The notes beneath the pieces were generated by a model that searched no databases, had not been told where the DNA came from, and saw only the letters and a list, made by a program, of their open reading frames with translations. This document shows positions 287 to 26,760 of a DNA stretch of 64,000 bases, in pieces. The translations under genes were made by a program, and so were the position numbers. The stretch's first letter is position 1. Each line of letters begins with the position of its first letter. Location of the stretch: the NCBI GenBank assembly GCA_964636275.1, contig CAZWRN010000001.1, positions 22,070 through 86,069 on the forward strand, read 5' to 3'. Source of the DNA: an uncultured Gammaproteobacteria bacterium. Its GTDB lineage: Bacteria; Patescibacteriota; Microgenomatia; Daviesbacterales; UBA10151.

Positions 287-287
287 T

Positions 288-2719: not shown

Positions 2720-2748
2720 TCTCGAGGTATTGACAAGGTTGTTTCTTC

Positions 2749-3165: not shown

Positions 3166-3320
3166 TGTCGGTAAATTCTAAGCACTAAATCCTAAACTCG
3201 AGATAAATCTAATACATAAATTCTAAATACAAAACTATTTTTGAAATTGTTATTTTGATATTTGAATTTGTCTAGAATTTAGGATTTCGATATTAGAGTT
3301 TATTATGTTACTCTTATTAC

Positions 3321-8119: not shown

Positions 8120-8288
8120 AAAAGGCTACCCGTTTGTCAGTACTCTAGTACCTATCCATCTTTTTTATTAGTTTAACTAAAGAAGGAAACGACTAGTGAG
8201 AGTATTATATACCCTATAGCCTATTAAAGCAACTTTCTGACTCCATCGTAACGTGCTTATAAAAAATAGTCAAACTTCAAATACCTAA

Positions 8289-9704: not shown

Positions 9705-9742
9705 CTTTGACATTTGTTTTTGAATGTGACAACAATTGATTT

Positions 9743-10081
9743 ATGCATCAGACAATTCATCAATACAGAGAGCAGATCCTGCAAAAAACATATGACGTCA
9801 TGACCCAGGCTGTTGAAAATGGGACACTCCAAGAAGAAGACATCTCACCAATGGCAGATTTTATTTTAGAGAGAGTTGATAAACTCACCACATATGATCA
9901 GGTAATCGGTTTTTTTCATTTACTAGCTTTGAAATGGCCTATCTTCTCCTCTTTATCTGTCGAAACAGAGGGTAAGCTGCAGGAAAAAGTTGAATCTCAT
10001 GTAAGAGATAGTATGTTATCATTGATAAAGGAAGGAAAGGTTGACGAAGCTGTCCAAATAGGACAGGCTTTGCATAAATAA
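9743..10081 (+). CDS. Hypothetical small protein
   Basis: 112-aa ORF tightly linked (1-nt gap) to the downstream gene. Confidence 0.4.
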   Translation: MHQTIHQYREQILQKTYDVMTQAVENGTLQEEDISPMADFILERVDKLTTYDQVIGFFHLLALKWPIFSSLSVETEGKLQEKVESHVRDSMLSLIKEGKVDEAVQIGQALHK

Positions 10082-11920: not shown

Positions 11921-11922
11921 AT

Positions 11923-13371
11923 TTATTCCGGATAACATCTAATACAATATCCACACTCCCCAAAATCACTTCCTCCACAATCATCACATTTTGTTTTTTT
12001 AGTACGTGATCTGCTCATTCTATCAACTCCCCAGCCTCCACCACTAAACTGTGTGAAATTGCGGAGAGAATCGGTGATCCTTTGTGTGACTCCTTCTACC
12101 CTACCGGAGCCACTACCTTTACCCCATGTTCCACAGAAAGCGCCAGTGTTGGCTTTCATAGCAGCCAGGGCTTTCAGATCGACCTGATTTTCCTCGACTA
12201 TATCGGCTGAATCTATCCTATGTTGATCTGACTTTTTAAGCATTCTTTCTAGCTTGATATTTTCGATAGTATTTTGGGTTTCTTGGATATATTTATCTTT
12301 GATGTGATCCTGGATCCAATCAGTGGAAATACCTTTTTCAAGCAGATTTACTACCCAATGCGCCACAATGGTCGAAGCTTCATCTTCTAGCCTTTGGCGC
12401 AAAGTCGGATCTTGAACAGCTAGGAACGTTTTCTGATCGATGCCAAACATAGTGCTGCTACCGTCAACCTCAGCTTTAACTTTAAACATCCTCTGATAAA
12501 TCTCATTGTGCGTTAGTGTCCCTTCTTTCATGATACTGGTTCGCATCACTCGGTCGACATCGACGGTCTGAGCAGTTGAATGTTTGCCAAGTCCAGCAAA
12601 GAACTCTTGGCCCTGTAGTTCACGCATGAACTTTTGATACGCCTCAGTGCTCATATCATTTTTGTATGAGTGCATCACCATTTTGCGAATACCCGCCACC
12701 TCAGTAATCTCTCCAACATAGAGATAGCCATATTCACCGTTGTATTTATGTATCATCTCCCCTTCTGATTCTTTGGCTATTGGACTGCCCCAGACCAACG
12801 TATGGGTTTTGGAGGCATTAAAGAATTTGTCAAAATTGGTAAATAGATACTCATTTTGAGTCATGGAGGCCAGGTCATTTTCTCTTCGCCATCCAGTCAG
12901 CGCTTCGGTGACGCTCCGACCAATATAAGCATGCTCAGGGCTGACCATTTTACGGCTGGTGACTCTTTGGCCAGTCGCCTCATCGACGGATTCTTCTTGA
13001 TGTAGCAGATAGGTGTTTTGGGTTGGCGTAATCTGCATCCGAGCTCGAGATTCTAGATCAAAAAAGGTTTTCCCACCCTGAGATAAAGCGGAGATATTTT
13101 CCTGCATCAGGGCTACACCATCTTTTTTGATAGCTTCAAAGGTATAGCGTTTAGCTAATTCTTGGTTACCACCGGATTTTTGGAGATGTTCCTGGTAAAG
13201 CTGAAGATACAAAGAGACATCACATACGAGTAGTTCACCATCACGTTGCTTCAAGGCTTTGCTGACAGACTCCATGCCAAGAGGAGAATTTATGGTGATG
13301 GATCCCCGCCTGCGCGAGGATGCGGGATATAATGAACGACTTTCTGTTCTTTTATCTAATAATGCTGGCAT
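11923..13371 (-). CDS. Hypothetical protein with a C-terminal Cys-cluster (zinc-ribbon-like)
   Basis: 482 aa ending CDDCGGSDFGECGYCIRCYPE; convergent with the upstream gene with a 2-nt gap. Confidence 0.55.
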   Translation of the reverse strand: MPALLDKRTESRSLYPASSRRRGSITINSPLGMESVSKALKQRDGELLVCDVSLYLQLYQEHLQKSGGNQELAKRYTFEAIKKDGVALMQENISALSQGGKTFFDLESRARMQITPTQNTYLLHQEESVDEATGQRVTSRKMVSPEHAYIGRSVTEALTGWRRENDLASMTQNEYLFTNFDKFFNASKTHTLVWGSPIAKESEGEMIHKYNGEYGYLYVGEITEVAGIRKMVMHSYKNDMSTEAYQKFMRELQGQEFFAGLGKHSTAQTVDVDRVMRTSIMKEGTLTHNEIYQRMFKVKAEVDGSSTMFGIDQKTFLAVQDPTLRQRLEDEASTIVAHWVVNLLEKGISTDWIQDHIKDKYIQETQNTIENIKLERMLKKSDQHRIDSADIVEENQVDLKALAAMKANTGAFCGTWGKGSGSGRVEGVTQRITDSLRNFTQFSGGGWGVDRMSRSRTKKTKCDDCGGSDFGECGYCIRCYPE

Positions 13372-13969: not shown

Positions 13970-15193
13970 ATGGAACCTGTCTTTCAAGCCCATCCTATAC
14001 CGCAAAATGTGACCAACTTTGAATTTCATTTGGTGGGAGATATGACCATCAAGCAGTTTGGGTATCTGGCTTTGGGACTAGTAATCGCTTTTGTGACGTT
14101 TATCGGACTTGCTTCTTCTTTTCCCTTTATAGCCTATCCTATTATAGTTATTTCAGCAGCAACTGGGGCGGCTTTTGCTTTTATTCCGATTCAAGAAAGG
14201 CCTTTAGATCATTGGGTAGGTGCATTTTTTAAGGCGATCTTTCATCCCACCAAACTGACCTATCAGTCAAAAATTTTAAAAAAAGAGGATCCTTTTTTTT
14301 CGAGAAGATTGTCGCTTTATATCCAAAACAAACACCGAAATCAGGCAGCTAAGTCACTTAGCACCCTGGCTTTAAAGCCAGTGAGCCAAAACCCTTCCGC
14401 CCCACCTTCGAATATGCCTTTATCAAGCACCAGAAAGCCTTCAATGGCTGATCGTCTTTTGTCCGGAGTTCAAACTACAGCTCAGGCACAGCCTGCTTCC
14501 CAGCCTGCAGCGCCTGTTTCACTGGGGACAGTTCCGGCAAGCCCGGTGGTAAAAGAACCACCCAAGCCAACAGATCTGAAGAAAACGGTTGACCTAGCAA
14601 AAGACGCCCAAGAAACTCAGAGTAAAATTTTAAAAATAGAAAAGCAGCTGGAACAGATCAAAGCAACCGTTGCTCAACCAGGAATTGATGCCAAAATATA
14701 TATCGATCAGTTTCAATCGCTGCTGGGAGATTTGCAAAAACTAAATGAACACGCTTCTGGTACCGCCCATGATTTGGCGATCCTGGCCAACTCCCCTGCT
14801 GCTGCAGCCCCCTCAGCTACACCGCCAGCCACAAATACTAGCGAGCCTAAGCCTCAAGTAAGTCCTCAACCAGCTCCCCCAAAAACAGTTCCTTCGGTCA
14901 CTTTGACAACGTTTCCCAATGTAGTAAATGGAGTCGTGACTGACAGCCAGGGCAACTATGTTGAAGGAGCTATTGTGGTTGCACATGACAAACAAGGATT
15001 ACCAGTCCGGGCTTTGCGAAGCAACAAACTGGGACAGTTTGTTGCAGCTACCCCCTTATCCAATGGTATCTATACTATTGTGGTTGAAAAAGACTCGATG
15101 GTCTTTGACAAAGTAGCAGTTGAACTAAAAAATGAAATCCTCCCTCCAATTTTGGTAGCCGCCCGTAAACAACTGCCCGGAGGTACAGCCTAA
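13970..15193 (+). CDS. PrgI/VirB3-like two-TM N-terminal domain fused to a Pro/Ala-rich linker and a C-terminal carboxypeptidase-regulatory-like beta-sandwich
   Basis: N-terminus NVTNFEFHLVGDMTIKQFGYLALGLV plus two TM helices then ERPLDHW, typical of PrgI-family proteins that precede VirB4; the C-terminus VTDSQGNYVEGAIVVAHD...GIYTIVVEKD resembles the CarboxypepD_reg fold. Confidence 0.5.
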   Translation: MEPVFQAHPIPQNVTNFEFHLVGDMTIKQFGYLALGLVIAFVTFIGLASSFPFIAYPIIVISAATGAAFAFIPIQERPLDHWVGAFFKAIFHPTKLTYQSKILKKEDPFFSRRLSLYIQNKHRNQAAKSLSTLALKPVSQNPSAPPSNMPLSSTRKPSMADRLLSGVQTTAQAQPASQPAAPVSLGTVPASPVVKEPPKPTDLKKTVDLAKDAQETQSKILKIEKQLEQIKATVAQPGIDAKIYIDQFQSLLGDLQKLNEHASGTAHDLAILANSPAAAAPSATPPATNTSEPKPQVSPQPAPPKTVPSVTLTTFPNVVNGVVTDSQGNYVEGAIVVAHDKQGLPVRALRSNKLGQFVAATPLSNGIYTIVVEKDSMVFDKVAVELKNEILPPILVAARKQLPGGTA

Positions 15194-15997
15194 ATGAGTG
15201 CAACGCAAGATTTTTTACCAGTAGAAGACATCCGCGATGATGTAGTGGTGATGAAAGATGGCTCAATGGCGATCGTACTACAAACATCAGCCGTCAATTT
15301 TGATCTACTTTCTGAAACAGAGCAGTTAGCAATTATTGGATCATTTGCAGCTCTTTTAAATTCCCTCTCTTTTTCAATCCAAATAGTAATCCGCTCAAAA
15401 AGACTCGACATATCCAACTACATTCATCTGCTGAAGGATGCCGAGGCTTTGCAAAAAAATCCGCTATTACAAGCGATGATGCAACATTACCGGCAATTTG
15501 TCACCAATATTATTCGAAATAACGAGGTGCTGGATAAACAGTTTTTTGTGGTCATATCAGTTTCTTATTTAGAACTTGGGGTGGTGAAAGATGTGAATAA
15601 AAACTTTGAGAAAGGATTAACCCTACTCTCTCCCAGACGGGATCATATCATGCGTCAGTTGGGGAGGATTGGTCTTAAAACAACCCAGCTGAATACTGAT
15701 AAACTGATAGCGCTTTTTTATGACTATTACAACGATACTTTTAAATCCAGTTTCAAATCAGCTGGGGCTTCATCAAAAACAACGGCTCCATCGCCAACAC
15801 CACCTGCAGTTGCCCCCCAGCCAGTCAAACCGTCCCAGACACCAACAATCACGCAAATGGCGCCAGCTCCCCAGCCCGCACCAGTACAACCAGTATCTCA
15901 GCCAATAACCAATCCGGCTCCACAGACACAGCCTAAACCAGCGGGAGTCCCTCTCAATCGCAATGTGCCATTTGCTGTGGAGGAGTTGGGAGCCTAA
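15194..15997 (+). CDS. VirB4/TrbE N-terminal domain as a separate ORF with a Pro-rich tail (split VirB4 or pseudogene fragment)
   Basis: LPVEDIRDDVVVMKDGSMAIVLQTSAVNFDLLSETEQLAIIGSFAALLNSL parallels the VirB4 N-terminus (LPY..HL.D.IVLLEDGSI..I.RV.GV.FEL.E..E...); the tail is APSPTPPAVAPQP...; the start is 1 nt after the upstream stop. Confidence 0.5.
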   Translation: MSATQDFLPVEDIRDDVVVMKDGSMAIVLQTSAVNFDLLSETEQLAIIGSFAALLNSLSFSIQIVIRSKRLDISNYIHLLKDAEALQKNPLLQAMMQHYRQFVTNIIRNNEVLDKQFFVVISVSYLELGVVKDVNKNFEKGLTLLSPRRDHIMRQLGRIGLKTTQLNTDKLIALFYDYYNDTFKSSFKSAGASSKTTAPSPTPPAVAPQPVKPSQTPTITQMAPAPQPAPVQPVSQPITNPAPQTQPKPAGVPLNRNVPFAVEELGA

Positions 15998-16086
15998 AGA
16001 ATAAACCAATAAACAAATAACCCAATGTCAAATTCCCAATTATTGAGAATTTGTTTATTTGAATATTGGATTATTTGTATATTTAT
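15998..16086. repeat. CCAAT-rich imperfect palindromic element (copy A), between the VirB4 N-terminal ORF and the VirB4 ATPase ORF
   Basis: aataaaCCAATaaacaaataaCCCAATgtcaaattCCCAATtattgagaatttgtttatttgaatATTGGattatttgtatattt; related copies at 24414-24470, 24581-24629 and 25086-25165. Confidence 0.7.
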
Positions 16087-16089
16087 AGT

Positions 16090-17880
16090 ATGAACTTACC
16101 TTTTAGCAGTAATAAAAAAAGTTATGCGTCAAATATTAAAGGGACTGCGGCTGAAGCACCGAAAGATCCTAGTGTGAATGGACAAACTTTTAGTTTAGAT
16201 GACGCCATTGCTCCCAAAGAGATCGAAATTGATTTTAGTTATCTACGAATGGATGACAAATACTACCGATCTTTTTTCGTCTCAGGTTATCCCCGCTATG
16301 TTGAACCAAACTGGCTTGAGCCGCTGATTAGTTTTGAACACTCACTAACTCTATCGATGTTTATTTATCCATCATCCAGTAAGAATATTTTGGATGATCT
16401 GAAAAGAAAGATCGCCGAGATGGAGGCTACTATTCAGACAGATATGGAGCGTGGCCGAGCAATAGATCCGGCTGTTCAGGTTGCTTTGGATGATGCTAAA
16501 TCACTCCAAGAACAGTTGGTTAAAGGGGCCGAAAGGTTTTTCCGGCTAGGACTTTATGTCACAGTCCCCTCTTCCAATCTTGAAGAGTTAAACAATATTT
16601 CCAAACTTGTTGAATCAACATTGGGATCTTTATCTATTCAACCTCGGGTGATGACCCTTCAGATGGCTGAAGCTTTTAACGCCACAATGCCGATCGATCG
16701 GGATATTTTAAAGCTCAATCACAACATGGACACAACATCCCTAGCGACAACTTTCCCGTTTACAACTTCAGAGCTGACTTCAGAAACGGGTATTATTTAT
16801 GGCATCAATGAACACAATGGCTCTTTGATTATTTTTGACCGTTTTTCATTGGAAAATGCTAATTCGGTGATTTTTGCTAAGTCCGGATCTGGTAAGTCCT
16901 ACTTTGTCAAACTCGAGGCTTTACGCTATATGATGTTTGGTTCGCAGGTGATTGTGATTGATCCTGAACATGAATATTTAAAGCTCTGTCAGGCTGTGGG
17001 AGGGCAATATATAGATTTTTCATCAGAGTCTCCGGTCAAGATAAATCCCTTTGATCTATCCAATGTCACAGAAGAGGGAGAAAATGAGCTGGGAAGAAAG
17101 ATTCTGACACTTACCGGATTTTTAAAACTCGTCTTGGGCCAGTTGGACGCTTCTCAGCAGGCAATTTTAGACCGGGCTTTGATTACAACGTATCGCCTCA
17201 AAGGAATAACCCAGGACCCAAAAACACAACATTTACCGCCACCATTAATGGAAGATCTCTATAAAGTACTGGTGGGTATGGAAGACAAAAGTGCCCAGGA
17301 GCTGGCTTATCGCCTAGAACGATTTATTAAAGGATCATTAGCTGGTATTTTTAGTGCTCCCTCTAATATTAACTTGAACAATCAGCTGATTGTTTTTTCG
17401 GTTCGTGATTTGGCAGATCAGTTGAGGCCTCTGGCGATGTATCTGATATTGGATTATATCTGGACCAAGATCAGACGAGAGATCTCCAAAAGATTGCTGA
17501 TCGTAGATGAGGCCTGGTACATGATGCAAAATGAGGATTCAGCTGAATTTTTGGTAGGTATAGCCAAAAGAGCCCGCAAATATTATTTAGGAGTTACTAC
17601 AATTACCCAGGATGTGGAAGACTTTTTAGGAACAGATCGTGGAAAGGCGATTATATCCAACTCTTCGATTCAGATATTACTTAAACAAGCTCCGGCCTCT
17701 ATTGGAAAAGTAGCTGAAACTTTTAATTTATCTGATGGGGAAAAATTGTTGTTGCTCTCAGCTGGAGTAGGACAAGGACTCTTCTTTGCCGGACAAACCC
17801 ATGTCGCGATGAGTGTAGTTGCTTCTCCAGAAGAACATCGACTGATCACCACCAATCCGTCTGAAGTGTTTAAGAAATAA
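16090..17880 (+). CDS. Type IV secretion ATPase, VirB4/TrbE/CagE family
   Basis: Walker A VIFAKSGSGKSYFVK, Walker B LLIVDEAWYMM, upstream GYPRYVEPNWLEPLI signature of the CagE_TrbE_VirB domain; start chosen at MNLPF (16090) because the track start lies inside the repeat element. Confidence 0.8.
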   Translation: MNLPFSSNKKSYASNIKGTAAEAPKDPSVNGQTFSLDDAIAPKEIEIDFSYLRMDDKYYRSFFVSGYPRYVEPNWLEPLISFEHSLTLSMFIYPSSSKNILDDLKRKIAEMEATIQTDMERGRAIDPAVQVALDDAKSLQEQLVKGAERFFRLGLYVTVPSSNLEELNNISKLVESTLGSLSIQPRVMTLQMAEAFNATMPIDRDILKLNHNMDTTSLATTFPFTTSELTSETGIIYGINEHNGSLIIFDRFSLENANSVIFAKSGSGKSYFVKLEALRYMMFGSQVIVIDPEHEYLKLCQAVGGQYIDFSSESPVKINPFDLSNVTEEGENELGRKILTLTGFLKLVLGQLDASQQAILDRALITTYRLKGITQDPKTQHLPPPLMEDLYKVLVGMEDKSAQELAYRLERFIKGSLAGIFSAPSNINLNNQLIVFSVRDLADQLRPLAMYLILDYIWTKIRREISKRLLIVDEAWYMMQNEDSAEFLVGIAKRARKYYLGVTTITQDVEDFLGTDRGKAIISNSSIQILLKQAPASIGKVAETFNLSDGEKLLLLSAGVGQGLFFAGQTHVAMSVVASPEEHRLITTNPSEVFKK

Positions 17881-17940
17881 GAAGAGACGATAGATGATCG
17901 AAGATAGGGGTAGAAGGTAGATGATAGCAGGTAGATACTT

Positions 17941-18303
17941 TTAGTAACTTTTCCATTTATCTCTTAAATTTACAATCTTTCCTCCCACTAACTCATATCG
18001 CTTAATTAGTTCGCTACATTTCTCTTGATCTAGATACTTCAAATCTTTTGCTATATTTAAATGTACTTCCATCTCATTACAGGATCCCAATGCTCTATCT
18101 AGTGATACCTTGAATTCTTTCTCAAAGCGTCTTTTCGCCCATCCTTCAGCAATATTTGCAGGAGGAGACTTAGTACATCTTCTCATTTGAGAAGCCAGAT
18201 CATTCTTTTCAAAAGATGGAAGCAATACACACAACTTCATTACTTCGATAGCCAACTCATAACATTCTTTATATACATCTAAATCCTTGAAGCTCTGAAT
18301 CAT
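17941..18303 (-). CDS. Four-helix-bundle protein (23S rRNA intervening-sequence protein family)
   Basis: FKDLDVYKECYELAIEV...LPSFEKNDLASQMRRCTKSPPANIAEGWAKRRFEKEFKVSLDRALGSCNEMEVHLNIA matches the family pattern (DL.VW.kA..L......LP..E...L..Q.rRaa.Si..NIAEG..R...keF..fL.iA.GS..E....L). Confidence 0.65.
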   Translation of the reverse strand: MIQSFKDLDVYKECYELAIEVMKLCVLLPSFEKNDLASQMRRCTKSPPANIAEGWAKRRFEKEFKVSLDRALGSCNEMEVHLNIAKDLKYLDQEKCSELIKRYELVGGKIVNLRDKWKSY

Positions 18304-18421
18304 ATCTGCGGATTCTATAAGTTCTATTCTCTATTTTCAATCCTCCACCACTATTTTCTATCTTCAATACTCTATTTTCTTTAAGTTGTCTCTCCTCCAT
18401 CTTTTCAGCTAAACTAGAGGC

Positions 18422-20374
18422 ATGGCTGCCCGCGATTCTGCTTCACTGTCTCGCAACGATTATTTGGCACTTTTCTATGCTTTGCAGGAGCTGCGCTCAG
18501 AGCCTAGCCAGCTCAGAATTTTAAAATCTCACATCTCGAGCGGCCGTTTTTACAATCAACCTTTGCCAAATATGATCCGACATATGCAAATACTTTTGCA
18601 GAGTAAGGATCCTAATCGGAAATTTCCGCAAACTCTCCGGAAAGAGGATGTGCCTGAATACTTTGAATCGCTTTTACGCGAGGTTAATAGCCATACTGAA
18701 CATGATTTTTATGGAAATATTGAACGTGGCATCAAGCAAAATATTTGGGAAAATATTCCGAGTCCGATAGCTGCACCAGTTCAAACTCCCCAGATGACAG
18801 ATGTCCCAGCAGCGACTGAATCACCCACGCCATCCGAGCCAGAAGAGGCCGTGCCAGAGCCGGAAAAAAAGTCTGAGCCGATAAAGCGTTTTAAGGCTGG
18901 CGGGACTCATTCTGAACCGATAAAAAAAGATGAGGGGCATAAAGATCAGCCACAGGCAAAAACTACCCCCAAAAAAAATATCTACCAGAGAGTAAAATCT
19001 TTTTTTACAACATCATCAACCCCTCAGCCTTCAACTTCGAGTGCTCCCTCAACAACGGCTACTAATAATACTCGGATTGTTGTGGCTAAAGCCAGACAAA
19101 CAGTTGGACAGGTACTCAGCAATCCGGTAAAAGATCTTGGCAGTCAGATCGTGAGACAGATCATCCGTCATCCTTTACTAAAAAAACGGGTAGTAACTGC
19201 TGGGATAGGGGCGATCGGCGGATATTATTTTGGCGGGGCACCGGGAGCAGGGGTTGGAGCTGTCCTGGGAGGGTTGTTAGGGCCAAATATCTCCACAACC
19301 ATAGGTGATGTTCTGACTGGAGGAAGAAGTAGCTCTTCCCTTTCGACGGGTACTCCAACAGCGCCAGATGATACATCAGGTGACGCACCTTCAGGTGGTG
19401 GGGGAGGGAGTAACTTTTTCCGCAACCGAGCTTTAAATACTGCGCGTAATTTAGCCAATCAGGCGGCTCGACGAGCCATCATTGCCGGTGGGCGAACTTT
19501 TTTAGCCGCCAACGCCTGGTGGATTATTTTGGTGATAGTTGTGGGGATTTTGCTACTGGTGGCGCTGTTGTTGATGCTCTGCATTCTCCCCTGGTCCGGC
19601 TGCAGTACCGGTGGATTAAATGGTGATGTAAAAAAGAATTTTTCTATTCAAAAATCAGCCCCTCAGGCTGTTGATAATGGATCTCCAATTGAATATAAAA
19701 TTGAAGTTATTAATAAAGGAAATCAAAATGCCTCAGTCACCGTTGTAGATAATCTCCCTGATGGAACTATTTATCAAACTGGAAATAACGATCCGGCTAC
19801 TGACCAAAATACTTCAAAAAAAATTCAATGGACAATTAATGACCTAGGTCCTGGACAGAAGAAAGATCTGACTTTCACCGTAGTTCCTCAAATCCCTGAT
19901 ACATGGATAGTTAATCAGACATCTGCAAATATTAAGTTGCTTGGAAATTCAAGTAGCGGTAATGTCAATATTCCGGGAAATATCCCCCCTACCGCAAACA
20001 ATTGCAATGGTACCTATCCTCTTAAAAATCCATTAGGTAACTTTGGTGATCCAAAGTGTGATTTTAATAAAGATGCCCTATACCAAATACTTCAGCAATT
20101 GGATCCTACAAACGCTACCTACTGGTTTACTAAAGTTGCTCGATGTGAAAGTAACTATTCTCCGAATGCCTATGCAGATCCAATTGCTGTAGGAACACCC
20201 GATCCTATAGGGGCCTGGGGGCTTTTCCAAATGGGACGGGGTAAGAATGGCGAATTTGACCATGGAGATGTTATCTGGCAACTTCAAACAAGTAATGCAG
20301 TGAATTATAACAACAATATTTCTAAGCTTGGGTTAGCCTGGCGATATTGGCAGTGCGCCAATGACAGATGGTAA
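18422..20374 (+). CDS. Membrane-anchored cell-wall hydrolase: N-terminal cytoplasmic region, Gly-zipper/TM, DUF11-like repeat domain, C-terminal Rpf/SLT-like transglycosylase (VirB1-like role)
   Basis: GIGAIGGYYFGGAPGAGVGAVLGGLLG then TM WWIILVIVVGILLLVALLLML; IEYKIEVINKGNQNASVTVVDNLPDG (DUF11-like); VARCESNYSPNAYADPIAVGTPDPIGAWGLFQM (the CES...GLFQ transglycosylase-like motif). Confidence 0.6.
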   Translation: MAARDSASLSRNDYLALFYALQELRSEPSQLRILKSHISSGRFYNQPLPNMIRHMQILLQSKDPNRKFPQTLRKEDVPEYFESLLREVNSHTEHDFYGNIERGIKQNIWENIPSPIAAPVQTPQMTDVPAATESPTPSEPEEAVPEPEKKSEPIKRFKAGGTHSEPIKKDEGHKDQPQAKTTPKKNIYQRVKSFFTTSSTPQPSTSSAPSTTATNNTRIVVAKARQTVGQVLSNPVKDLGSQIVRQIIRHPLLKKRVVTAGIGAIGGYYFGGAPGAGVGAVLGGLLGPNISTTIGDVLTGGRSSSSLSTGTPTAPDDTSGDAPSGGGGGSNFFRNRALNTARNLANQAARRAIIAGGRTFLAANAWWIILVIVVGILLLVALLLMLCILPWSGCSTGGLNGDVKKNFSIQKSAPQAVDNGSPIEYKIEVINKGNQNASVTVVDNLPDGTIYQTGNNDPATDQNTSKKIQWTINDLGPGQKKDLTFTVVPQIPDTWIVNQTSANIKLLGNSSSGNVNIPGNIPPTANNCNGTYPLKNPLGNFGDPKCDFNKDALYQILQQLDPTNATYWFTKVARCESNYSPNAYADPIAVGTPDPIGAWGLFQMGRGKNGEFDHGDVIWQLQTSNAVNYNNNISKLGLAWRYWQCANDRW

Positions 20375-20978
20375 AGTAAAAGTTATGAAAATTGAAAATA
20401 TTTTTGCAAATAAAAAAATAGCCTTAGTTATTGTTGTTTTGCTTGTTTTACTTTTAATAGCGTTTTTATTGCGACTTATATTCTCTTCCCCTAAATCATC
20501 CATCCCACCAGTTATTGATGTCCCAAAAGCTTCATTTTCTCCATCGCCAAGAATAGTCGGCCAGCCTTTTCCATCTGTAATTTCATCTACCCCATCAGCT
20601 CAAATCAAATCACTTGTATATAAACCGGGGGAGTTGACTAAAGATTATGAACGAATCAGTTCTCACCCACCCCTTTCTTCAGCAGATCAAACAGTTAAAA
20701 CGAACCTCTTAAGGCCCTTGAATTCCCAGTCGGGGGTTGTAGCAAGTACCAATCAATTTAGAATCGAGTACGTCAAAAGTCCTGATTTGTTTATGATTGA
20801 AGTAAGAAGCATCAACCCCAATATTGGAAAAAATGCCGCTGAACAATATTTAAAGGATCAGGGACTTAGTACTTCAGGGGTTTGTAATCTGCCGGTACTA
20901 TTTTATCTCAGTCAGCAAGTTCAAGATGATTTAATTTCAAAAGGACAGACTTTCAATCCAATACCGACAGGATGTTAA
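20361..20978 (+). CDS. Membrane-anchored extracytoplasmic protein (possible VirB8-like scaffold)
   Basis: N-terminal TM IALVIVVLLVLLLIAFLLRLIF followed by about 170 aa extracellular; role inferred only from context. Confidence 0.35.
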   Translation: MTDGKVKVMKIENIFANKKIALVIVVLLVLLLIAFLLRLIFSSPKSSIPPVIDVPKASFSPSPRIVGQPFPSVISSTPSAQIKSLVYKPGELTKDYERISSHPPLSSADQTVKTNLLRPLNSQSGVVASTNQFRIEYVKSPDLFMIEVRSINPNIGKNAAEQYLKDQGLSTSGVCNLPVLFYLSQQVQDDLISKGQTFNPIPTGC

Positions 20979-20979
20979 A

Positions 20980-22305
20980 ATGCAAAAAAATATAAAAATA
21001 ATATTATTTATACTTAGTGTTTTCTTTGTCAGCCAACTCCGACCGGTTCAAGCTCAGGAACCAGTAGATTTTCCCACAATCATACCCAAAGTGTCCTGTC
21101 CGGTGATCGGTGGTTCTATACTAACCCCTTCATTTCAAGCTGATCCAGTCAAAGGGCATTGTGGAAGTGATTATGGATATTCCTGCACTTGCGGAAATTC
21201 AGGTCGTAGAGCTAAAGCTATAGATATTCCCACCACTCCAGATACAGATGTTGTTCTGCCAAAAATCGAGGGTGAAGACATTACATGGACACTAATTGAA
21301 ACTCTTTGTGCCGGATCAGGTTTATATCCCAACTGCAGTGATAGTAATGGCGGAACAGGCGGGATGATAACATTTGTAGGTATTAATCCCTCTAGACCTA
21401 ACGACAAATGGTATATTCAGTTTCTTCATCTCAAAGTATCAACAATTTTGGTAGAAAAAGGAGGTTCGTATTCACCAGGAACTGTAGTTGGAAAAACCGA
21501 TATATCAGCCCATGTCCACACTACTATAGGTAAAAACCTGAACGTAAGTGGTGACAATATTTCAGGTGCTGCAGACTGTGATGCCAATTGGCTACCTTCT
21601 GACTTTATTTGTGACCCCTCCAAACAACCAACAACTATCCCTGAAGCCAAACCGGTTGGGGCTGCAGCTGGTGAAATAAAAAGTAATTATGCATGTACCA
21701 AAGTTGGAACTCCCAAAGAAGATATGCCTGCGATCTGCAAAAACCAGGCACTTCCTCAATTTGGAGAAGCAGGCAATTTTACCTATTACTGCCAGGGGGA
21801 TGACCGTTGGCAAAAATTTGCCTGTAGCGTTGGAAAGGTTGGCTGTGGTGCTACATCAGCCGCCATGATTACTACCTATTTTGGACAAACTCTTACTCCG
21901 GCTGATGTGTTTGGTGATTTTTTAAATTCTGGCGCATTAACATGTGGAGACGGGATCTATCCAGACAGAGTGTTAAACTGGTTTAGGAATAATGGCTATG
22001 AAGTGGGGCCGAGCGTAGTCGCTGGAGGCACTCTAGATGCTGTCGCTGCTAAAAATTATATTGACAAGGGATATCTGATCTTGGGATCCTCGCATAATTT
22101 TAGAGGACAGAGTGGCGCGACATTTAGCCATGTGTTTGTTGTTCAAAATGTGGACCCACAGACCGATACTTTTATCATGCGTGATCCGGAAAATTGCGCT
22201 TATGGGCCGGGAACAGAGCTGGCTCAAAATAATGTTCAACCGATCAAAAGCGATAAGATTCCAAGCTGGGCATATGCCTATCCGATTAAAAAAGGAGGTA
22301 ATTAG
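20980..22305 (+). CDS. Secreted cysteine-rich two-domain hydrolase: degenerate M23/LytM-like N-domain plus C39-like (Peptidase_C39_2) papain-fold C-domain
   Basis: Signal peptide; YIQFLHLKVS...GTVVGKTDISAHVHTTIG resembles the M23 HxH region; CSVGKVGCGATSAAMITTYFG (Cys nucleophile) and SHNFRGQSGATFSHVFVV (His) fit the C39-like domain. Confidence 0.5.
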   Translation: MQKNIKIILFILSVFFVSQLRPVQAQEPVDFPTIIPKVSCPVIGGSILTPSFQADPVKGHCGSDYGYSCTCGNSGRRAKAIDIPTTPDTDVVLPKIEGEDITWTLIETLCAGSGLYPNCSDSNGGTGGMITFVGINPSRPNDKWYIQFLHLKVSTILVEKGGSYSPGTVVGKTDISAHVHTTIGKNLNVSGDNISGAADCDANWLPSDFICDPSKQPTTIPEAKPVGAAAGEIKSNYACTKVGTPKEDMPAICKNQALPQFGEAGNFTYYCQGDDRWQKFACSVGKVGCGATSAAMITTYFGQTLTPADVFGDFLNSGALTCGDGIYPDRVLNWFRNNGYEVGPSVVAGGTLDAVAAKNYIDKGYLILGSSHNFRGQSGATFSHVFVVQNVDPQTDTFIMRDPENCAYGPGTELAQNNVQPIKSDKIPSWAYAYPIKKGGN

Positions 22306-22310
22306 TAACT

Positions 22311-22754
22311 ATGAATAGATTTCAAATGTTTCTCATGATATTTATAATTATCTTAGCCTTTATCGTTTTTATTAGCTTTATCTTTTTCTCTAATGCTCCA
22401 TTCCCTTCTGAGCCTACACCAATCCCTTCAGCGTCAACAACACCAGTCCAAAGAGTTATTGATGATAAAAGTGTGGAGCTTCATCCAAATAACGGTGTCT
22501 ATCAGACAATCTCCTCGGCAGCAGCGGAACAGATTGACCAGGATACTAAAATTGGCCAGTTAATAAAAAAATTACCACATCGATCGGAGAATTTTTCGCT
22601 TGTATATGATATAGACACTAATTCTTTTATTGCTGAACTTTCTCCCACCAGAAGAGCTCAGGCAAATAGAGAACTAGATCAATTTTTGGAAGAAAACGGT
22701 ATAATGGATAGAGATTGGTTATATAATTTAAGCATTAAACAACAAACCTACTAA
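22311..22754 (+). CDS. Small membrane-anchored hypothetical protein
   Basis: N-terminal TM FLMIFIIILAFIVFISFIFF then a hydrophilic domain. Confidence 0.4.
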   Translation: MNRFQMFLMIFIIILAFIVFISFIFFSNAPFPSEPTPIPSASTTPVQRVIDDKSVELHPNNGVYQTISSAAAEQIDQDTKIGQLIKKLPHRSENFSLVYDIDTNSFIAELSPTRRAQANRELDQFLEENGIMDRDWLYNLSIKQQTY

Positions 22755-22758
22755 GTTT

Positions 22759-23205
22759 ATGAGTACTAAAGCTAAAATCATTGCAGTTATCGTCGCTATC
22801 GGAGCAATCTTGATTGCCGTATTTCAGTTTGGTCTGGGTGGGCCAGCGACTGAAAGAGGATCGGAGGTCTCCCAAACTGATTCTCCAGTCGTCGTATCTA
22901 CCAATCCTCCAACAATGAAAGAGAAGAAAACCGTAGTTGTGCTCCCAACTCAGCCAATTGAGATCACTTTCAATCAACCATTAGAAAATGTACCAGAAAC
23001 ACGAATTACCATTGAACCAAAAGCTGATTACAAAGTTGAATTGTCAGGAGATAAAAAAACTATCAAAATAATCCCTGTAACCCCCTATTCTTTGGGGCAA
23101 GGTTACTCGCTTTTTATCAAAGCTGATACCAAATTTGACGGTAAAAAGACTTTAGGTTCAGATGTGGATTTTCATTTTGCAACCATTAGTTATAACGGAG
23201 TTTAA
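22759..23205 (+). CDS. Small membrane-anchored protein with an Ig-like beta domain
   Basis: N-terminal TM IIAVIVAIGAILIAVF; beta-rich C-terminus (ITIEPKADYKVELSGDKKTIKIIPV). Confidence 0.4.
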   Translation: MSTKAKIIAVIVAIGAILIAVFQFGLGGPATERGSEVSQTDSPVVVSTNPPTMKEKKTVVVLPTQPIEITFNQPLENVPETRITIEPKADYKVELSGDKKTIKIIPVTPYSLGQGYSLFIKADTKFDGKKTLGSDVDFHFATISYNGV

Positions 23206-23296
23206 ATTTGTATTTCTCCATGCGCGTAAAGCTGCTTAGTCAAAAAAGATTGTTTTATTATTCTTGTTCGAGCGAAGTCGAGAACTTCATTTTAAT

Positions 23297-24409
23297 CTAA
23301 CTTAAGCGGATTGGCATAATCACATATTCCAGTCCTTCGATGCCTTCTGGTTTGATTAAAGCCGCAGAGAGATTTCCGGAAAATTCAATCCTGACTTTTT
23401 CGGAATTTACTGAAGACAAAGCATCTGTCAGGTATTTAGCATTAAAGGCGATCTGGATCGGGTTTTGCCCCGTCTGAGCCTCTATTTCAGTCTCTTGCTC
23501 CCCTACTTCTCTGGCCTGAGAAGAGATTTTTATTTTTCCTTCCAAAGTCTCCATTTTGATAACATTCGCTTCTGTTTTAGCAAAAACCGATGCCAACTTG
23601 ACGGCTTTTAATAAATCTGTTCGATCGATATGGGTGATATTTTGAAATTCAGTCGGAACTATTTTTTCCCAGGATGGAAAATTACCCTCAATCAGCCGAG
23701 AAGAAGCCTGTGTATCCCCTACTTTAAAAATAATCTGGTTGTCACTGGTTCCAATCTCAACCAGTCCTGATTCCGACTTTTCAATATCTTCGCTAATCAG
23801 CCTGACAACTTCTTCTAGGGTTCTTCTGGGTATCAGAGATCTAAATGGTTGATCAGTTTCACTCTCGAGGCTCATTTTTTTGTGAGCCAGCCGAAAACCA
23901 TCAGTTGCAACCAACTCTAAGGTATGTTTGGTAATCTCGGTTAATATTCCAGTTAAAACAGGTCTGCCGTCATCAGCTGCAGCAGCAAAGGCGATCTGAG
24001 GGACAGAATCTTTTAGTACCGCAGCTTGAACAGAGGCGGCTTTTTCTCCGGCCAATGGTATAGCTGGAAACTCGGCAGACGAGATACCATTTAAAGTGAC
24101 ATTAAAGTTTTTAGCTGAAATTCGAAGTTGTTCGCCGCCGGATTCGAGAGTTAGTTCTAAGCCACTTAAAGACGAGATGATCTCTTGAAATGTTTTAGCT
24201 GGTACTGTTAGATCCCCTTCTTCTTCCACGCTTGCATTAATCGATTTAACAACACCAATTTCCAGATTGGTAGCAGATAAAACTAATTTATTTCCCTGAG
24301 CCTGTAACAGGATATTGGCCAAAACAGGTAAAGTGGTACGAATTCCGACTGATCTTGAAACAGCTTGTAGTGGACCATTTAAATCTGATTGTTGAATTTT
24401 TAATCGCAT
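23297..24409 (-). CDS. dnaN: DNA polymerase III beta subunit (sliding clamp)
   Basis: MRLKIQQSDLNGPLQAVSRSVGIRTTLPVLANILLQAQGNKLVLSATNLEIG and full-length clamp; start set at the internal Met (24409) since the track extension runs into the repeat element. Confidence 0.93.
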   Translation of the reverse strand: MRLKIQQSDLNGPLQAVSRSVGIRTTLPVLANILLQAQGNKLVLSATNLEIGVVKSINASVEEEGDLTVPAKTFQEIISSLSGLELTLESGGEQLRISAKNFNVTLNGISSAEFPAIPLAGEKAASVQAAVLKDSVPQIAFAAAADDGRPVLTGILTEITKHTLELVATDGFRLAHKKMSLESETDQPFRSLIPRRTLEEVVRLISEDIEKSESGLVEIGTSDNQIIFKVGDTQASSRLIEGNFPSWEKIVPTEFQNITHIDRTDLLKAVKLASVFAKTEANVIKMETLEGKIKISSQAREVGEQETEIEAQTGQNPIQIAFNAKYLTDALSSVNSEKVRIEFSGNLSAALIKPEGIEGLEYVIMPIRLS

Positions 24410-24413
24410 AATG

Positions 24414-24470
24414 GAATAAACCAATAACCCAATAGACAAATAAACCAATTCTTGAATTAAGAATTCGCTG
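24414..24470. repeat. CCAAT-rich element, copy C (left arm), abutting the dnaN start
   Basis: aataaaccaataacccaatagacaaataaaccaattcttgaattaagaattcg. Confidence 0.6.
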
Positions 24471-24580
24471 TTTTTGGATAATTGTTTAAAGTGTTTTTTG
24501 GTAATTTTTCAACCGCTTTAAGAACTTCAACAACGAATTCAAAAATTCTTTCATATATATCGTGTTTATATTCATTATTC

Positions 24581-24629
24581 GCCATTTGTTTATTGGGTTA
24601 TTTGTATATTTGTTTATTCAGTAAATGGC
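24581..24629. repeat. CCAAT-rich element, copy D (right arm, ATTGG orientation)
   Basis: gccatttgtttattgggttatttgtatatttgtttattcagtaaatggc, closely matching the right arm of copy A. Confidence 0.6.
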
Positions 24630-24633
24630 AGAT

Positions 24634-25113
24634 TTACTTAAGACCTTTAACAACTCTTTCAACTTCGTCTTCGGTGACCTTAATCAAGCGAAAATAAACT
24701 CGCTGATGCTCTATGAGGGTTTTAATATGTTTTTCCTCTGGTGTCAAGGCAGCACTTGTTCCCGACTTCACTTCGATGAAATCAATTCTTTCCCCATTTT
24801 TGACTCCAACAAAATCAATTGGCCATCCTAAAGGAATAATTCGGTCATAATCATAACGAAGTTCAGCATACGTTAAAAGTTCAGCCATCTTGCCCTTTTG
24901 TGGATTGATCGATCCCTGAATGGTCTGAAGTACCCTAACTGGCAGATTATTTACCTGTTGATAAAGGTCAATAAAATCCTGTGGGATATCTGTACGTGGT
25001 TTGGCTTGGAGTCTGCCAATTAAATAAGCGATGATTAATCCTAAAATAATAAACCCGATAGTAACCCAGTTAAATTCCATGATTAAGAATAATCCAATAA
25101 CCCGATAAACCAA
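24634..25113 (-). CDS. Membrane-anchored PD-(D/E)xK nuclease, Hjc-like (archaeal-type Holliday junction resolvase fold)
   Basis: N-terminal TM WVTIGFIILGLIIAYLIG; the core AEL...PIDFVGVKNGERIDFIEVKSG parallels Hjc AERE...KVDLVAGNGKKYLCIEVK (Glu, Asp, E-V-K catalytic triad). Confidence 0.55.
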   Translation of the reverse strand: MVYRVIGLFLIMEFNWVTIGFIILGLIIAYLIGRLQAKPRTDIPQDFIDLYQQVNNLPVRVLQTIQGSINPQKGKMAELLTYAELRYDYDRIIPLGWPIDFVGVKNGERIDFIEVKSGTSAALTPEEKHIKTLIEHQRVYFRLIKVTEDEVERVVKGLK

Positions 25114-25165
25114 TGCCCAATTTCCAATTATTGGAGTCTGGTTTATTTGGAGATTTGTTTATTAG
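25086..25165. repeat. CCAAT-rich palindromic element, copy B
   Basis: aataatCCAATaacccgataaaCCAATgcccaatttCCAATtattggagtctggtttatttggagatttgtttatt, alignable with copy A over about 80 bp. Confidence 0.7.
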
Positions 25166-25169
25166 GCTA

Positions 25170-25382
25170 TTATACAGTATTGAGTTATCCCGAGAGTTAT
25201 CAACAAGGCTGGTGAATATAAACTTTATTATTTATATACAGTAATGGTATTTATAGGGGGTGTGAATAAGTATATAACTTAGTATTTTAGCTTCACTTTT
25301 CGGATAATTTTGGTGTTGAAAAGCGGTGGATAATTGTGGATAACTTGGTGGATAAGTTGGGGATAAATTGTTGATAAGTAGT
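25170..25382. promoter_or_regulatory. oriC: oriC core: DnaA-box cluster plus an AT-rich unwinding-element candidate
   Basis: TTATCCCGA (25186-25194) and TTATCAACA (25198-25206) on the plus strand; AT-rich stretch 25207-25300; then on the minus strand TTATCCACC (25325-25333), perfect TTATCCACA (25335-25343), TTATCCACC (25347-25355) and weaker GGGGATAAA / TTGATAAG. Confidence 0.75.
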
Positions 25383-26729
25383 TCATCCGGCTAAATTTTG
25401 CTTTATTTCCATTACAACTCTTTGGATTTCTCTGTCTCTTGAGATAGCTGACTTGATCTTATCCACACCGTGCATAACTGTTGTATGGTCTCTACCACCC
25501 AAAACCTGGCCAATTTTTTCAAAAGGCATATTACATTCAGTTTGCATCAGGTACATGGCTATTTGGCGAGGCATGACGAGCTCTTTTTGTCTTCTGGGGC
25601 CGGTAATATCTGCCATTTTGAGATTGAAATAATCGTTTACTGTCGACAACAGTTTTTTATGGTCAACCTTCTGGTTTTGATTTAGCTGTGGTCCCCCCAA
25701 GTATCTTGAAACAAATTCAATAGTCGGTTCTTGATTCATCAGCTTACTAGTTTCTAATATTTGTATCAGCTTTCCTTCTAGTTCCCGAGTGTTGGATTGA
25801 ATTGATTCAGCAATTAAGGTTAGGCTTTCTTCAGGTAGTGTTTGTCCTTTCTCTACTAGCTTAGCTTTTAAGATGGCTACTCTGGTTTCAAAATCAGGGA
25901 GTTGGAGATCGACCATAAGACCACCTTGAAATCGAGATCTTAAACGGTCTTCGAGTTTGGTTAGTTCATTTGGTGGACGATCAGATGTAAGGACTATTTG
26001 GGCGTTTTTGGTGTGAAGTTCATTAAAAGTATGGAAAAATTCTTCCTGGAATGAATCTTTGCCGGCGATAAATTGAATATCGTCAACTAAAAGACAGTCA
26101 CAGTCTCGATATTTTTGACGAAAAGCGGTTGTACCTTTTCTTTGAATTGATTCAACGAAATCGTTTAAAAATCTTTCTGATGAGACAAACACCAGTTTGG
26201 CTCGAGGGTTTTTTTCTAATATAGCGTTGCCAATGGCATGCATGAGATGGGTCTTCCCTACTCCAGATGGTCCATACATAAAGAATGGATTATATGATTG
26301 GCCTGGATTTTGAATAATTGCTTGGGCTGCAGCGAAAGCTAAATTGTTGGTCGGTCCGACAACAAAATTTTGAATAGTGTATTTTTTATTCAAGGCGGTA
26401 GTTGGTTTTGGTGCCCCAGGCATTTCTATAGTAAAGAGGTCGTCATCTTCTTCTGTTTGGATGATATTTTTTTTATTGTCTAAAGACGGGTCGATAGTGT
26501 AGGAGATTGTCAGCGTGTCGCCTATGACAGCCTGGATTGATTCGTTGAGTACCGGGCCATAACGCAATAATTGTTGCCCTTTGACAAAAGCTGACGGAAC
26601 GGCTAAAACGATCTCGTTGTTTTCGATCTTGCGAGCTTCGGTTTTACCAAACCAGGTTCTAAAATTGTGGGCATCCAGTTTTTGTTTGAGCTGAGCTTGG
26701 ATTTTTTGCCAGGTTGCTTGAGGGTCCAT
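25383..26729 (-). CDS. dnaA: Chromosomal replication initiator DnaA
   Basis: Walker A GPSGVGKTHLMHAIGN, Walker B LLVDDIQFIAGK, C-terminal DNA-binding MPRQIAMYLMQTECNMPFEKIGQVLGGRDHTTVMHGVDKI; ATG at 26729 (MDPQATWQKIQ...) preferred over the GTG-extended track start. Confidence 0.95.
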   Translation of the reverse strand: MDPQATWQKIQAQLKQKLDAHNFRTWFGKTEARKIENNEIVLAVPSAFVKGQQLLRYGPVLNESIQAVIGDTLTISYTIDPSLDNKKNIIQTEEDDDLFTIEMPGAPKPTTALNKKYTIQNFVVGPTNNLAFAAAQAIIQNPGQSYNPFFMYGPSGVGKTHLMHAIGNAILEKNPRAKLVFVSSERFLNDFVESIQRKGTTAFRQKYRDCDCLLVDDIQFIAGKDSFQEEFFHTFNELHTKNAQIVLTSDRPPNELTKLEDRLRSRFQGGLMVDLQLPDFETRVAILKAKLVEKGQTLPEESLTLIAESIQSNTRELEGKLIQILETSKLMNQEPTIEFVSRYLGGPQLNQNQKVDHKKLLSTVNDYFNLKMADITGPRRQKELVMPRQIAMYLMQTECNMPFEKIGQVLGGRDHTTVMHGVDKIKSAISRDREIQRVVMEIKQNLAG

Positions 26730-26741
26730 GAGGCCAATACT

Positions 26742-26760
26742 AGTGGATAAGTTGTCCACA
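26742..26760. promoter_or_regulatory. Two DnaA boxes immediately upstream of the dnaA start (autoregulatory candidate)
   Basis: agTGGATAAgTTGTCCACA: TTATCCACT (26742-26750) and TTGTCCACA (26752-26760). Confidence 0.6.

Follow-up and report, generated by a model that had tools for sequence, protein, structure and literature searches.

The window described here is a stretch of 64,000 nucleotides (positions 22,070 to 86,069 of contig CAZWRN010000001.1, assembly GCA_964636275.1) from a member of the Microgenomatia within the Candidate Phyla Radiation (CPR, or Patescibacteria). Two genes in this window, which encode protein 1 and protein 2, probably constitute the peptidoglycan-remodelling module, of the VirB1 or PrgK type, of a chromosomal type IV secretion system (T4SS) of the Gram-positive (MPF-FATA-like) kind. 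An earlier note on this DNA had described two unusual wall hydrolases encoded at 18422-20374 and 20980-22305, and open reading frames (ORFs) do lie at exactly these coordinates. Protein 1 consists of a cytoplasmic head, a glycine-rich segment, one separate transmembrane (TM) helix, DUF11 and, at its C-terminus, a lysozyme-like domain. Protein 2 combines a signal peptide with a domain of the M23/LytM fold and a Peptidase_C39_2 domain, and it lacks an anchor. The window contains the three domain types of the enterococcal hydrolase PrgK distributed over two genes, in divergent variants that are so far unannotated; all public copies that bear a name are called 'hypothetical protein' or 'uncharacterized repeat protein'. 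The domains are identified at the level of the fold or superfamily, and to this are added conservation of catalytic residues, synteny and domain swapping among relatives.

Both genes lie directly downstream of a split gene for the VirB4 ATPase, and this position is conserved in relatives, where the gene of the protein 1 type is immediately 3' of virB4; homologues of protein 1 are P0001-P0008. The conserved position fits the VirB1-type role that the earlier note had proposed. All eight related loci examined (L004-L011) have the genes in the order PrgI-VirB4N-VirB4C-anchored hydrolase-(small TM protein)-(secreted hydrolase)-(small TM protein)-Big_5-dnaN, and the arrangement PrgI, VirB4, anchored hydrolase, small TM protein, secreted hydrolase, Big_5, dnaN, dnaA is repeated in more than 25 related loci of Microgenomatia. 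The two-ORF form of VirB4 recurs in L010 and L011, indicating that it is a conserved feature rather than a frameshift artefact. The first gene of the block, orf407, matches Pfam PrgI with 40 bits (cut-off 27) and has orthologues at the same position in L005-L011. A metagenome scan yielded 80 loci with the lysozyme-like domain, 30 of which are at least 7 kb long. Among these 30 loci, the orf407 orthologue is found at the same position in 16, the lysozyme-like gene directly follows VirB4C in 18, and a VirB6-like gene is nearby in 7 more.

Protein 1, ORF205, protein 2, ORF147 and ORF148 form a tightly packed run of five genes in the ORF map, with the start of ORF205 overlapping the end of protein 1 by 14 nt and the remaining gaps amounting to 1-5 nt. 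ORF147 and ORF148 are the final genes of the block ahead of dnaN, which lies on the opposite strand, as do a Holliday-junction-resolvase-like gene and dnaA after it. The minimum of the cumulative GC skew falls at ~22-24 kb of the window. The T4SS block adjoins the replication origin, and this position is conserved across Microgenomatia relatives. The conserved order beside the origin identifies a core chromosomal locus and not a mobile island (the earlier note had spoken of an island); many relatives have a syntenic chromosomal locus by dnaN and dnaA. Within 13970-26759 the block abuts dnaN, the resolvase-like gene and dnaA, and in L010 it continues into dnaA, rpmH, rnpA, yidD and yidC.

A homologue of ORF205 is encoded directly 3' of the lysozyme-like gene in 72 of the 80 metagenome loci, including all 30 that are at least 7 kb long. 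The lysozyme-like protein thus has in ORF205 an obligatory downstream partner. The ecto-domain of ORF205 ends in the pattern ...GxCNLPVxFYL...F.PLPxGC, and the family has no relatives in Pfam, the PDB or PHROG. ORF205 could be a dedicated partner of the hydrolase (a regulator, inhibitor or scaffold), or it could be the 'missing' VirB8-like subunit of CPR T4SSs; a profile of the family found no relatives in Pfam or the PDB that would show or exclude a VirB8-like identity. ORF205 and ORF147 were considered as paralogues, and no relationship between them was detectable.

The conserved surroundings bear on whether the two proteins are ordinary housekeeping autolysins, used in growth or division, that lie beside a T4SS by chance. 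This is very unlikely. A conserved chromosomal locus next to dnaN and dnaA would suit such enzymes, as would the absence of a relaxase or coupling protein among the window ORFs scanned against Pfam, but the position after virB4 is kept across loci that are otherwise wholly different, the coupling to ORF205 is strict, and the architecture with an anchored head is specific to this slot. Moreover, a canonical Peptidase_M23 protein (53962-55254, minus strand, 86.8 bits, motifs HPGID and HTH) and a VanW plus PG_binding_4 protein (42792-44603, minus strand) are encoded elsewhere in the window, which indicates that the genome has ordinary wall enzymes beside the T4SS-linked variants.

The C-terminal domain of protein 1 appears to belong to the lysozyme-like superfamily, as a small representative that has one catalytic glutamate and is closest in its logic to the SLT (GH23) enzymes. 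Its key residues are Glu576 (codon 20147-20149), Ser577, G600-L-F-Q603 and the pair Cys575/Cys645; the CES...GLFQ signature on which the earlier note had relied is present, with CES at 575-577 and GLFQ at 600-603. In an alignment of 66 sequences built from the metagenome scan, Glu576, Gly600, Gln603 and Met604 are each found in 66/66 and Ser577 in 58/66. The Pfam SLT model matches 25 of 40 family members at E<=0.1 (best E 1.1e-5), and the c-type lysozyme model matches 6 of the 40. A profile based on the 66 sequences aligned by hhalign with a CPR SLT profile (E 2.7e-5, probability 74%), and the ES and GxxGLxQ motifs of the two coincided. An earlier profile of 7 sequences had reached E 0.0019 in the same comparison, against values of at least 0.026 for 20 column-shuffled controls and 0.09-0.9 for unrelated profiles. 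When the PDB was searched with a profile of 40 family sequences, 192 sequences were matched at E<=10 with c-type lysozymes on top (best E 5.5e-4); searches of the PDB by phmmer and hmmsearch with single proteins and small profiles gave nothing relevant, and only the 40-sequence profile reached the lysozymes. Glu576 aligns with lysozyme Glu35. The second carboxylate of c-type lysozymes (GH22, PF00062) is not kept, as the column of Asp53 holds Ala598 in 65 of the 66 sequences. The sequence of the domain does not tell a lytic transglycosylase from a muramidase, and it may be either.

Of the 66 sequences, 41 have both Cys575 and Cys645, 22 have neither and 3 are discordant. This strong co-occurrence points to a disulfide such as those of Rpf and the c-type lysozymes. 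The earlier note had called the domain Rpf/SLT-like. The assignment to the lysozyme-like superfamily is supported by the SLT and PDB matches; membership in the Rpf family is rejected, since hhalign with RpfB (sequence verified against 4emn) aligns only 9 columns (E 0.46) and the Rpf model PF06737 matches 1 of the 40 members (E 0.015). An AlphaFold2 model made from the 7-sequence alignment is all-helical, with a helix that ends at fragment residues 68-70 (the CES motif), and at a pLDDT (predicted local distance difference test) of 41 it is too poor for a meaningful Foldseek search. A tblastn search of plasmids and phages with the domain found nothing.

The remainder of protein 1 is consistent with a membrane-anchored carrier of this domain. 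The conserved head is followed by a low-complexity linker rich in Pro, Glu, Lys and Ser that extends to about residue 230. The head has no match in Pfam or the PDB, and a hidden Markov model (HMM) of it recovers close orthologues only. Protein 1 had been credited with a 'glycine-zipper TM', which proves to be two elements: the zipper (residues 257-290, to which Pfam Gly-zipper_YMGG gives a match below its cut-off, E 0.014) lies in a segment with hydropathy below the TM threshold, and the TM helix is separate and downstream of it. An Arg-rich stretch N-terminal of the helix predicts an N-in, C-out topology with a cytoplasmic part of ~360 amino acids; the earlier note was right in placing the head in the cytoplasm, at a length of roughly 380. 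Directly past the helix, Cys394 (in ILPWSGC, residues 388-394, 19583-19603) is invariant in 9/9 family members. Its context is lipobox-like (PWSGC), yet it is 394 residues from the N-terminus. The DUF11 (CLIPPER) domain, which the earlier note had recognised, scores 36.9 bits with PF01345 (cut-off 24.6, E 5.1e-9) and 28.3 bits with TIGR01451 (cut-off 24). It is probably a stalk or spacer.

Protein 2, whose homologues are P0009-P0026, begins with a signal peptide (residues 1-25, hydrophobic at 5-25) that ends in the cleavage motif VQA/QE. It has 15 cysteines rather than the more than 20 counted earlier. The AlphaFold2 model has a mean pLDDT of 71.8, with two cores at residues 80-190 and 290-440 that reach 80-94 (86-94 for the first). 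In Foldseek searches of the PDB the N-terminal domain matched lysostaphin, ShyA, Csd1/2, EnpA, phi29 gp13 and others (E 1.5e-4 to 8e-3, probability ~1.0), and M23 enzymes make up all five PDB matches of the family profile A7. Among 1.84 billion representatives, a profile search placed 232 representative clusters in this M23-like family. Pfam Peptidase_M23 (PF01551) gave no match on protein 2 and none at E<=10 for 12 family members, and a global hhalign comparison of the M23-like profile with the canonical M23 protein of the window did not resolve the first motif. Derivation from a phage or prophage is rejected: there was no PHROG match, no M23-like domain was found in viral contigs, and tblastn found no lysozyme-like domain in phages or plasmids.

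The active site of the M23-like domain was mapped by hhalign onto lysostaphin, the sequence of which was checked against the PDB. His150 corresponds to the catalytic His82 of lysostaphin, and His178 and His180 correspond to His113 and His115. Alignment of the first motif, RRAKAID(82)IPTTPDTDVV with MHYGVD(36)FFMNIGTPV of lysostaphin, places Asp82 at the position of the zinc-binding Asp and Ala78 at that of the canonical HxxxD His. Ala78 is within the RRAKAID motif, which is invariant. Cys40, His60, Arg77, Asp82, His150 and His180 do not vary among 28 diverse members with identities down to 26%, and the conservation of His178, Cys61 and Cys69 is at least 90%. The domain retains four of the five canonical M23 active-site residues and has the additional invariant His60 22 residues upstream of Asp82. 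It may be that His60, in a loop modelled at pLDDT <50, replaces the missing zinc ligand.

The earlier note had called the domain a degenerate LytM fold, which is only half right: the fold is that of M23/LytM and the HxxxD His is lost in favour of an invariant Ala, but the other four positions and His60 are retained. Degenerate LytM (dLytM) domains are defined by loss of most metal-binding and catalytic residues, and here one position of five is lost. Alternatively, the M23-like domain, and possibly the C39_2 domain as well, could be non-catalytic and act as a regulator, scaffold or wall-binding module. This possibility, which is rather unlikely, draws on the invariant Ala in place of the HxxxD His, on the failure of the Pfam M23 model to detect the domain, and on repeated fusions with Amidase_3, which recall the partnerships between dLytM domains and amidases. 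EnvC and NlpD are dLytM proteins of this sort and function as amidase activators. A further precedent is PrgK, in which the LytM domain is degenerate and metal-free, only the SLT domain is active, and LytM together with CHAP down-regulates SLT (PMC11323569). The residue pattern argues against a dead domain, however. Asp82, His150 and His180 are invariant and His178 nearly so across the 28 members; when His60 is included the number of His and Asp residues equals that of an active M23 site, and dead domains normally lose such residues. The triad of the C39_2 domain is fully conserved.

The second domain of protein 2 matches Pfam Peptidase_C39_2 (PF13529) over residues 266-403 with 33.8 bits (cut-off 24), in agreement with the papain-type, C39-like domain described before. 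Its Cys289/His384/Asp402 triad is intact, and each of the 12 homologues that have the domain conserves the motifs in which these residues reside (GCG[PA]TS, H[VI]FVV and RDP). In the AlphaFold2 model Cys289 opens a helix (289-300), and Foldseek matched the C-terminal domain to staphopain, phytochelatin synthase and AvrRpt2 (E 9e-3 to 8e-2). HMM checks of the window proteins recommended by the earlier note had a mixed outcome, with C39_2 above its cut-off and SLT, Transglycosylase-like and Peptidase_M23 either below threshold or without a match. Active-site mapping likewise located Glu576, the C39_2 triad and Asp82/His150/His178/His180 and found Ala78 in place of the HxxxD His.

Classical C39 peptidases cleave leader peptides, which raises the question of whether the C39_2 domain, instead of cutting peptidoglycan, is a protein-processing protease that matures, for example, VirB2-like pilins or other substrates that are secreted. 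The locus has an array of seven pilin genes, and the closest solved folds (staphopain, AvrRpt2 and phytochelatin synthase) are proteases or transpeptidases and not CHAP or NlpC enzymes. Such a function is nevertheless improbable. In related proteins the domain is fused to wall-hydrolase modules (SLT, Amidase_3 and M23), the pilins have ordinary Sec-type signal peptides with no evident double-glycine leader, and the domain occurs in only 3 of the 80 related loci, whereas pilins are widespread. C39-like domains are, in addition, accepted catalytic domains of phage endolysins (PMC3314691, PMC8223927).

The domains found in proteins 1 and 2 are exchanged extensively among relatives. Locus L011 is the exact reciprocal of the window in that it encodes an anchored protein of 1015 amino acids with DUF11 and M23-like domains and a secreted protein of 469 amino acids with SLT and C39_2 domains (P0015). 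A TM helix and both the M23-like and lysozyme-like domains occur in a single protein in P0079. In Daviesbacteria-type loci a single protein of ~615 amino acids, made up of a head, a Gly-rich segment, a TM helix and an M23-like domain, fills the space from virB4 to the Big_5 gene. A long head and an internal TM helix are present in 110 of 155 carriers of the M23-like domain, and 37 of the 155 have an SLT domain of the CPR type, which in the examples listed stands after the TM helix and before the M23-like domain. Within the same polypeptides, partner domains include Amidase_3, Amidase_2, SLT, C39_2, M14 and canonical M23, and the M23-like domain is fused beside Amidase_3 repeatedly (P0014, P0051, P0061, P0073, P0077).

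The slot after the ORF205 homologue holds changing small secreted proteins in L014, L017, L024, L032, L034 and L084 (~6.8-9.8 kb in locus coordinates). Judged by eye, their motifs are CHAP/NlpC-like (QC...GH), Amidase_2-like, Amidase_3 plus CHAP-like, and HExxH metalloprotease-like; in L084 the HExxH protein is fused to C39_2.

The variability of this slot can be read in another way, namely that the enzymes, notably the freely secreted protein 2, attack the wall of a host cell in trans, opening it for the T4SS pilus or channel or releasing nutrients, with the slot adapting to differing host wall chemistries. Such a role is doubtful, though it is compatible with a function of the same proteins as a VirB1/PrgK-type module and does not exclude it. 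Protein 2 has a signal peptide and no anchor; the range of slot contents (M23-like plus C39_2, SLT plus C39_2, Amidase_3 plus M23-like plus C39_2, CHAP/NlpC-like, Amidase_2-like and HExxH) is typical of diversifying pressure; and the canonical M23 peptidase at 53962-55254 could take care of housekeeping. In Ca. Southlakia epibionticum the T4SS and the peptidase and lysozyme homologues encoded just 3' of virB4 are essential for epibiotic growth (PMC12102498, PMC10633639). On the other hand, the producer's own membrane anchors protein 1 and most proteins with the M23-like domain, which favours action in cis, and Gram-positive T4SS hydrolases with the same domain types work on the donor wall. No immunity gene was identified, though ORF205 and ORF147 are uncharacterised. 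A more speculative extension, no more likely than the role itself, is that the post-virB4 hydrolases are a fast-shuffling 'lysin cassette' whose secreted members, protein 2 among them, would be delivered to the host wall, would have a domain composition tuned to the peptidoglycan chemotype of the host and would determine the host range and attachment of Microgenomatia epibionts; the M23-like domain would then be a new active M23 subfamily in which a His-Cys motif further upstream supplies the first zinc ligand (H-x21-D for H-x3-D).

If proteins 1 and 2 are the peptidoglycan-remodelling module of the T4SS, a plausible mechanism is as follows. Protein 1 would insert in the membrane N-in, C-out, and its ~360-residue cytoplasmic part and Gly-rich segment would probably dock it to the VirB4/PrgI machinery. 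The DUF11 stalk would hold the single-Glu lysozyme-like domain in the wall, where it would cleave glycan strands, as suggested by the invariant Glu576 and the ES...GLxQ motifs. Protein 2 would be exported by Sec and released. In its M23-fold domain the ligands would have the unusual layout His60...Asp82...His180 and the catalytic residues would be His150 and His178, and either this domain or C39_2 might cut peptide stems or cross-links, or modulate the glycosidase as in PrgK. The two proteins would in this manner open a local gap in the cell's own wall through which the channel and the VirB2-like pilus pass.

Several observations weigh against assigning this function to the two proteins. The hydrolase activities of both are predictions from sequence. 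The lysozyme-like fold of protein 1 is deduced from profiles, and the Pfam SLT model (PF01464) scores the window domain at 13.5-14.7 bits, below the gathering cut-off of 21.3. The M23-like domain lacks the canonical HxxxD His, and the loop with the proposed substitute, His60, is of low confidence in the model. The LytM and CHAP domains of PrgK showed no hydrolytic activity, and the same could hold here (PMC11323569). Homology between the head of protein 1 and those of other anchored hydrolases is indicated by one hhalign match (E 1.7e-7) that is driven in part by Gly-rich and TM composition, and a BLASTP comparison of the head with P0024 was not significant. Finally, among the 80 loci with the lysozyme-like domain the M23-like domain is found in none and C39_2 in three, which suggests that the protein 1 type is the core element and protein 2 an accessory, variable part.

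The coordinates of these features and of the neighbouring T4SS genes are collected in Table 1. Several further genes accompany the system. The pilin array is broken by a gene for a secreted protein of 354 amino acids (1655-2719) with ~14 tandem copies of a ~15-residue motif, YDPIRQVGQNTQFGx. Between the genes for the VirB6-like and PrgI/VirB3-like proteins (5198-13371) are four large ORFs of 973 (minus strand), 471 (plus), 612 (plus) and 482 (minus) amino acids, none of which has a Pfam match. Locus L006 has only ~1.3 kb at this place, and the four ORFs may encode T4SS effectors or cargo specific to the lineage. Between virB4 and protein 1, a gene of the '23S rRNA intervening-sequence protein' family (17941-18303, minus strand, 94.6 bits) breaks the otherwise co-directional operon; a weaker relative is located upstream of the PrgI gene in L008. 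A scan for promoters and terminators gave counts equal to the shuffled expectation. The remaining genes of the window are housekeeping genes.

Table 1. Positions in the window of proteins 1 and 2, their domains and the associated T4SS genes
Feature	Position	Strand	Remarks
VirB2-type pilin array	14-3635		seven small paralogous genes; T4SS_pilin match
VirB6-like polytopic protein	3673-5184		
PrgI/VirB3-like T4SS membrane protein (orf407)	13970-15193	+	first gene of conserved block; C-terminal CarboxypepD_reg-like domain
Split VirB4 ATPase	15194-17880	+	two ORFs
VirB4 N-terminal TrsD/TraC-like ORF	15194-15997	+	NCBIfam TrsD/VirB4, E 1e-9
VirB4 P-loop ORF	16066-17880	+	Pfam P-loop_TraG, E 4.9e-33
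Protein 1	18422-20374	+	650 aa
Protein 1, conserved cytoplasmic head (predicted)	18422-18751	+	residues 1-110; conserved alignment block
Protein 1, amphipathic and glycine-zipper segment	19118-19327	+	residues ~233-302; invariant block AGVGA.LGG..GP...G..T.GR
Protein 1, single TM helix	19505-19597	+	residues ~362-392; Kyte-Doolittle window maximum 3.61 over 356-397
Protein 1, DUF11 (CLIPPER) Ig-like domain	19634-19891	+	residues 408-489
Protein 1, lysozyme-like (SLT-like) domain	19982-20371	+	residues 521-650, core 561-650
ORF205	20361-20978	+	bitopic; conserved ecto-domain with two invariant Cys
Protein 2	20980-22305	+	441 aa
Protein 2, M23/LytM-fold domain	21085-21624	+	residues 36-215
Protein 2, Peptidase_C39_2 papain-like domain	21763-22293	+	residues 262-438; triad Cys289 (codon 21844-21846), His384, Asp402
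ORF147	22311-22754	+	bitopic; no known family; orthologues in L011, L084
ORF148	22759-23205	+	bitopic; Big_5 Ig-like domain, 28.3 bits (cut-off 23.6); orthologues in L004-L011

A survey of Patescibacteria T4SSs from 2025 found that recognisable VirB1 homologues are rare near virB4 and suggested that other glycosidases are used instead (PMC12102498). The locus described here shows what fills the VirB1 slot in Microgenomatia, namely lysozyme-like and M23-fold domains, neither of which is above Pfam or NCBIfam thresholds. It also supplies concrete candidate catalytic residues and a conserved partner, ORF205. Should the secreted enzymes act on host walls, they would offer a way into the host specificity of organisms most of which are uncultivated.

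Comparison with known wall hydrolases places each domain relative to a better characterised counterpart. The lysozyme-like domain of protein 1 resembles Rpf in its small size and in having a Cys just before the catalytic Glu that is paired with a C-terminal Cys, but it has no significant profile match to Rpf. The M23-like domain has the fold of lysostaphin/LytM, which are canonical glycyl-glycine endopeptidases of the M23 family, and of phi29 gp13, a tail enzyme that combines lysozyme and M23 domains, and it contains the HxxxD Asp, the Y-x-H-L strand His and the HxH motif. It differs from lysostaphin/LytM in having Ala78 for the first zinc-ligand His and a conserved His60-Cys61 22 residues upstream, before a Cys-rich insertion, and Pfam M23 is blind to it. 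The C39_2 domain is like the 'C39-like' N5 domain of mycobacteriophage LysA and other C39_2 domains of endolysins in being a papain-like wall-lytic module beside other lytic domains; protein 2, however, is not phage-borne and has no match in viral contigs, phage collections or PHROGs.

VirB1 of Agrobacterium and other T4SS transglycosylases of diderms are alike in having a single-Glu, SLT-type domain dedicated to a T4SS and bearing the ES...GLxQ motifs. VirB1 is soluble and periplasmic and exceeds the Pfam SLT threshold, whereas protein 1 is bitopic, its predicted Cys-bridged domain is much smaller, and its best sequence matches in the PDB are c-type lysozymes. The hydrolases of Ca. Southlakia epibionticum ML1 are also from Patescibacteria and are encoded at the same position after virB4. 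They are likened to proteins 1 and 2 by position and not by sequence, and they come from the Saccharimonadia rather than the Microgenomatia.

PrgK of Enterococcus faecalis pCF10, which combines LytM, SLT and CHAP domains and is a binding partner of the VirB8-like PrgL (PMC11323569), and its relative TraG of pIP501 (SLT plus CHAP) are encoded, like proteins 1 and 2, in a Gram-positive-type T4SS operon that contains VirB4. The 'SLT' domain of PrgK is a muramidase (PMC11323569). In the window, the cysteine peptidase is C39_2 and not CHAP, a cytoplasmic head of ~360 amino acids and a DUF11 stalk are added, and the divergence of the lysozyme-like and M23-like domains exceeds what Pfam detects. Chromosomal and located beside oriC together with a pilin array, the system shows no relaxase or coupling protein among the scanned ORFs. 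The three domains, moreover, are spread over two proteins, one anchored and one secreted, and swap places in relatives. PrgK and the window proteins nonetheless have in common a membrane anchor with extracellular hydrolase domains, a LytM/M23 fold with a non-canonical site, a lysozyme-like domain of the SLT type, a papain-like cysteine peptidase and, by position only, a small bitopic partner, PrgL in one case and ORF205 in the other. This split and shuffling triad of LytM, SLT and cysteine peptidase ties the CPR system closer to the conjugation machines of Gram-positive bacteria.

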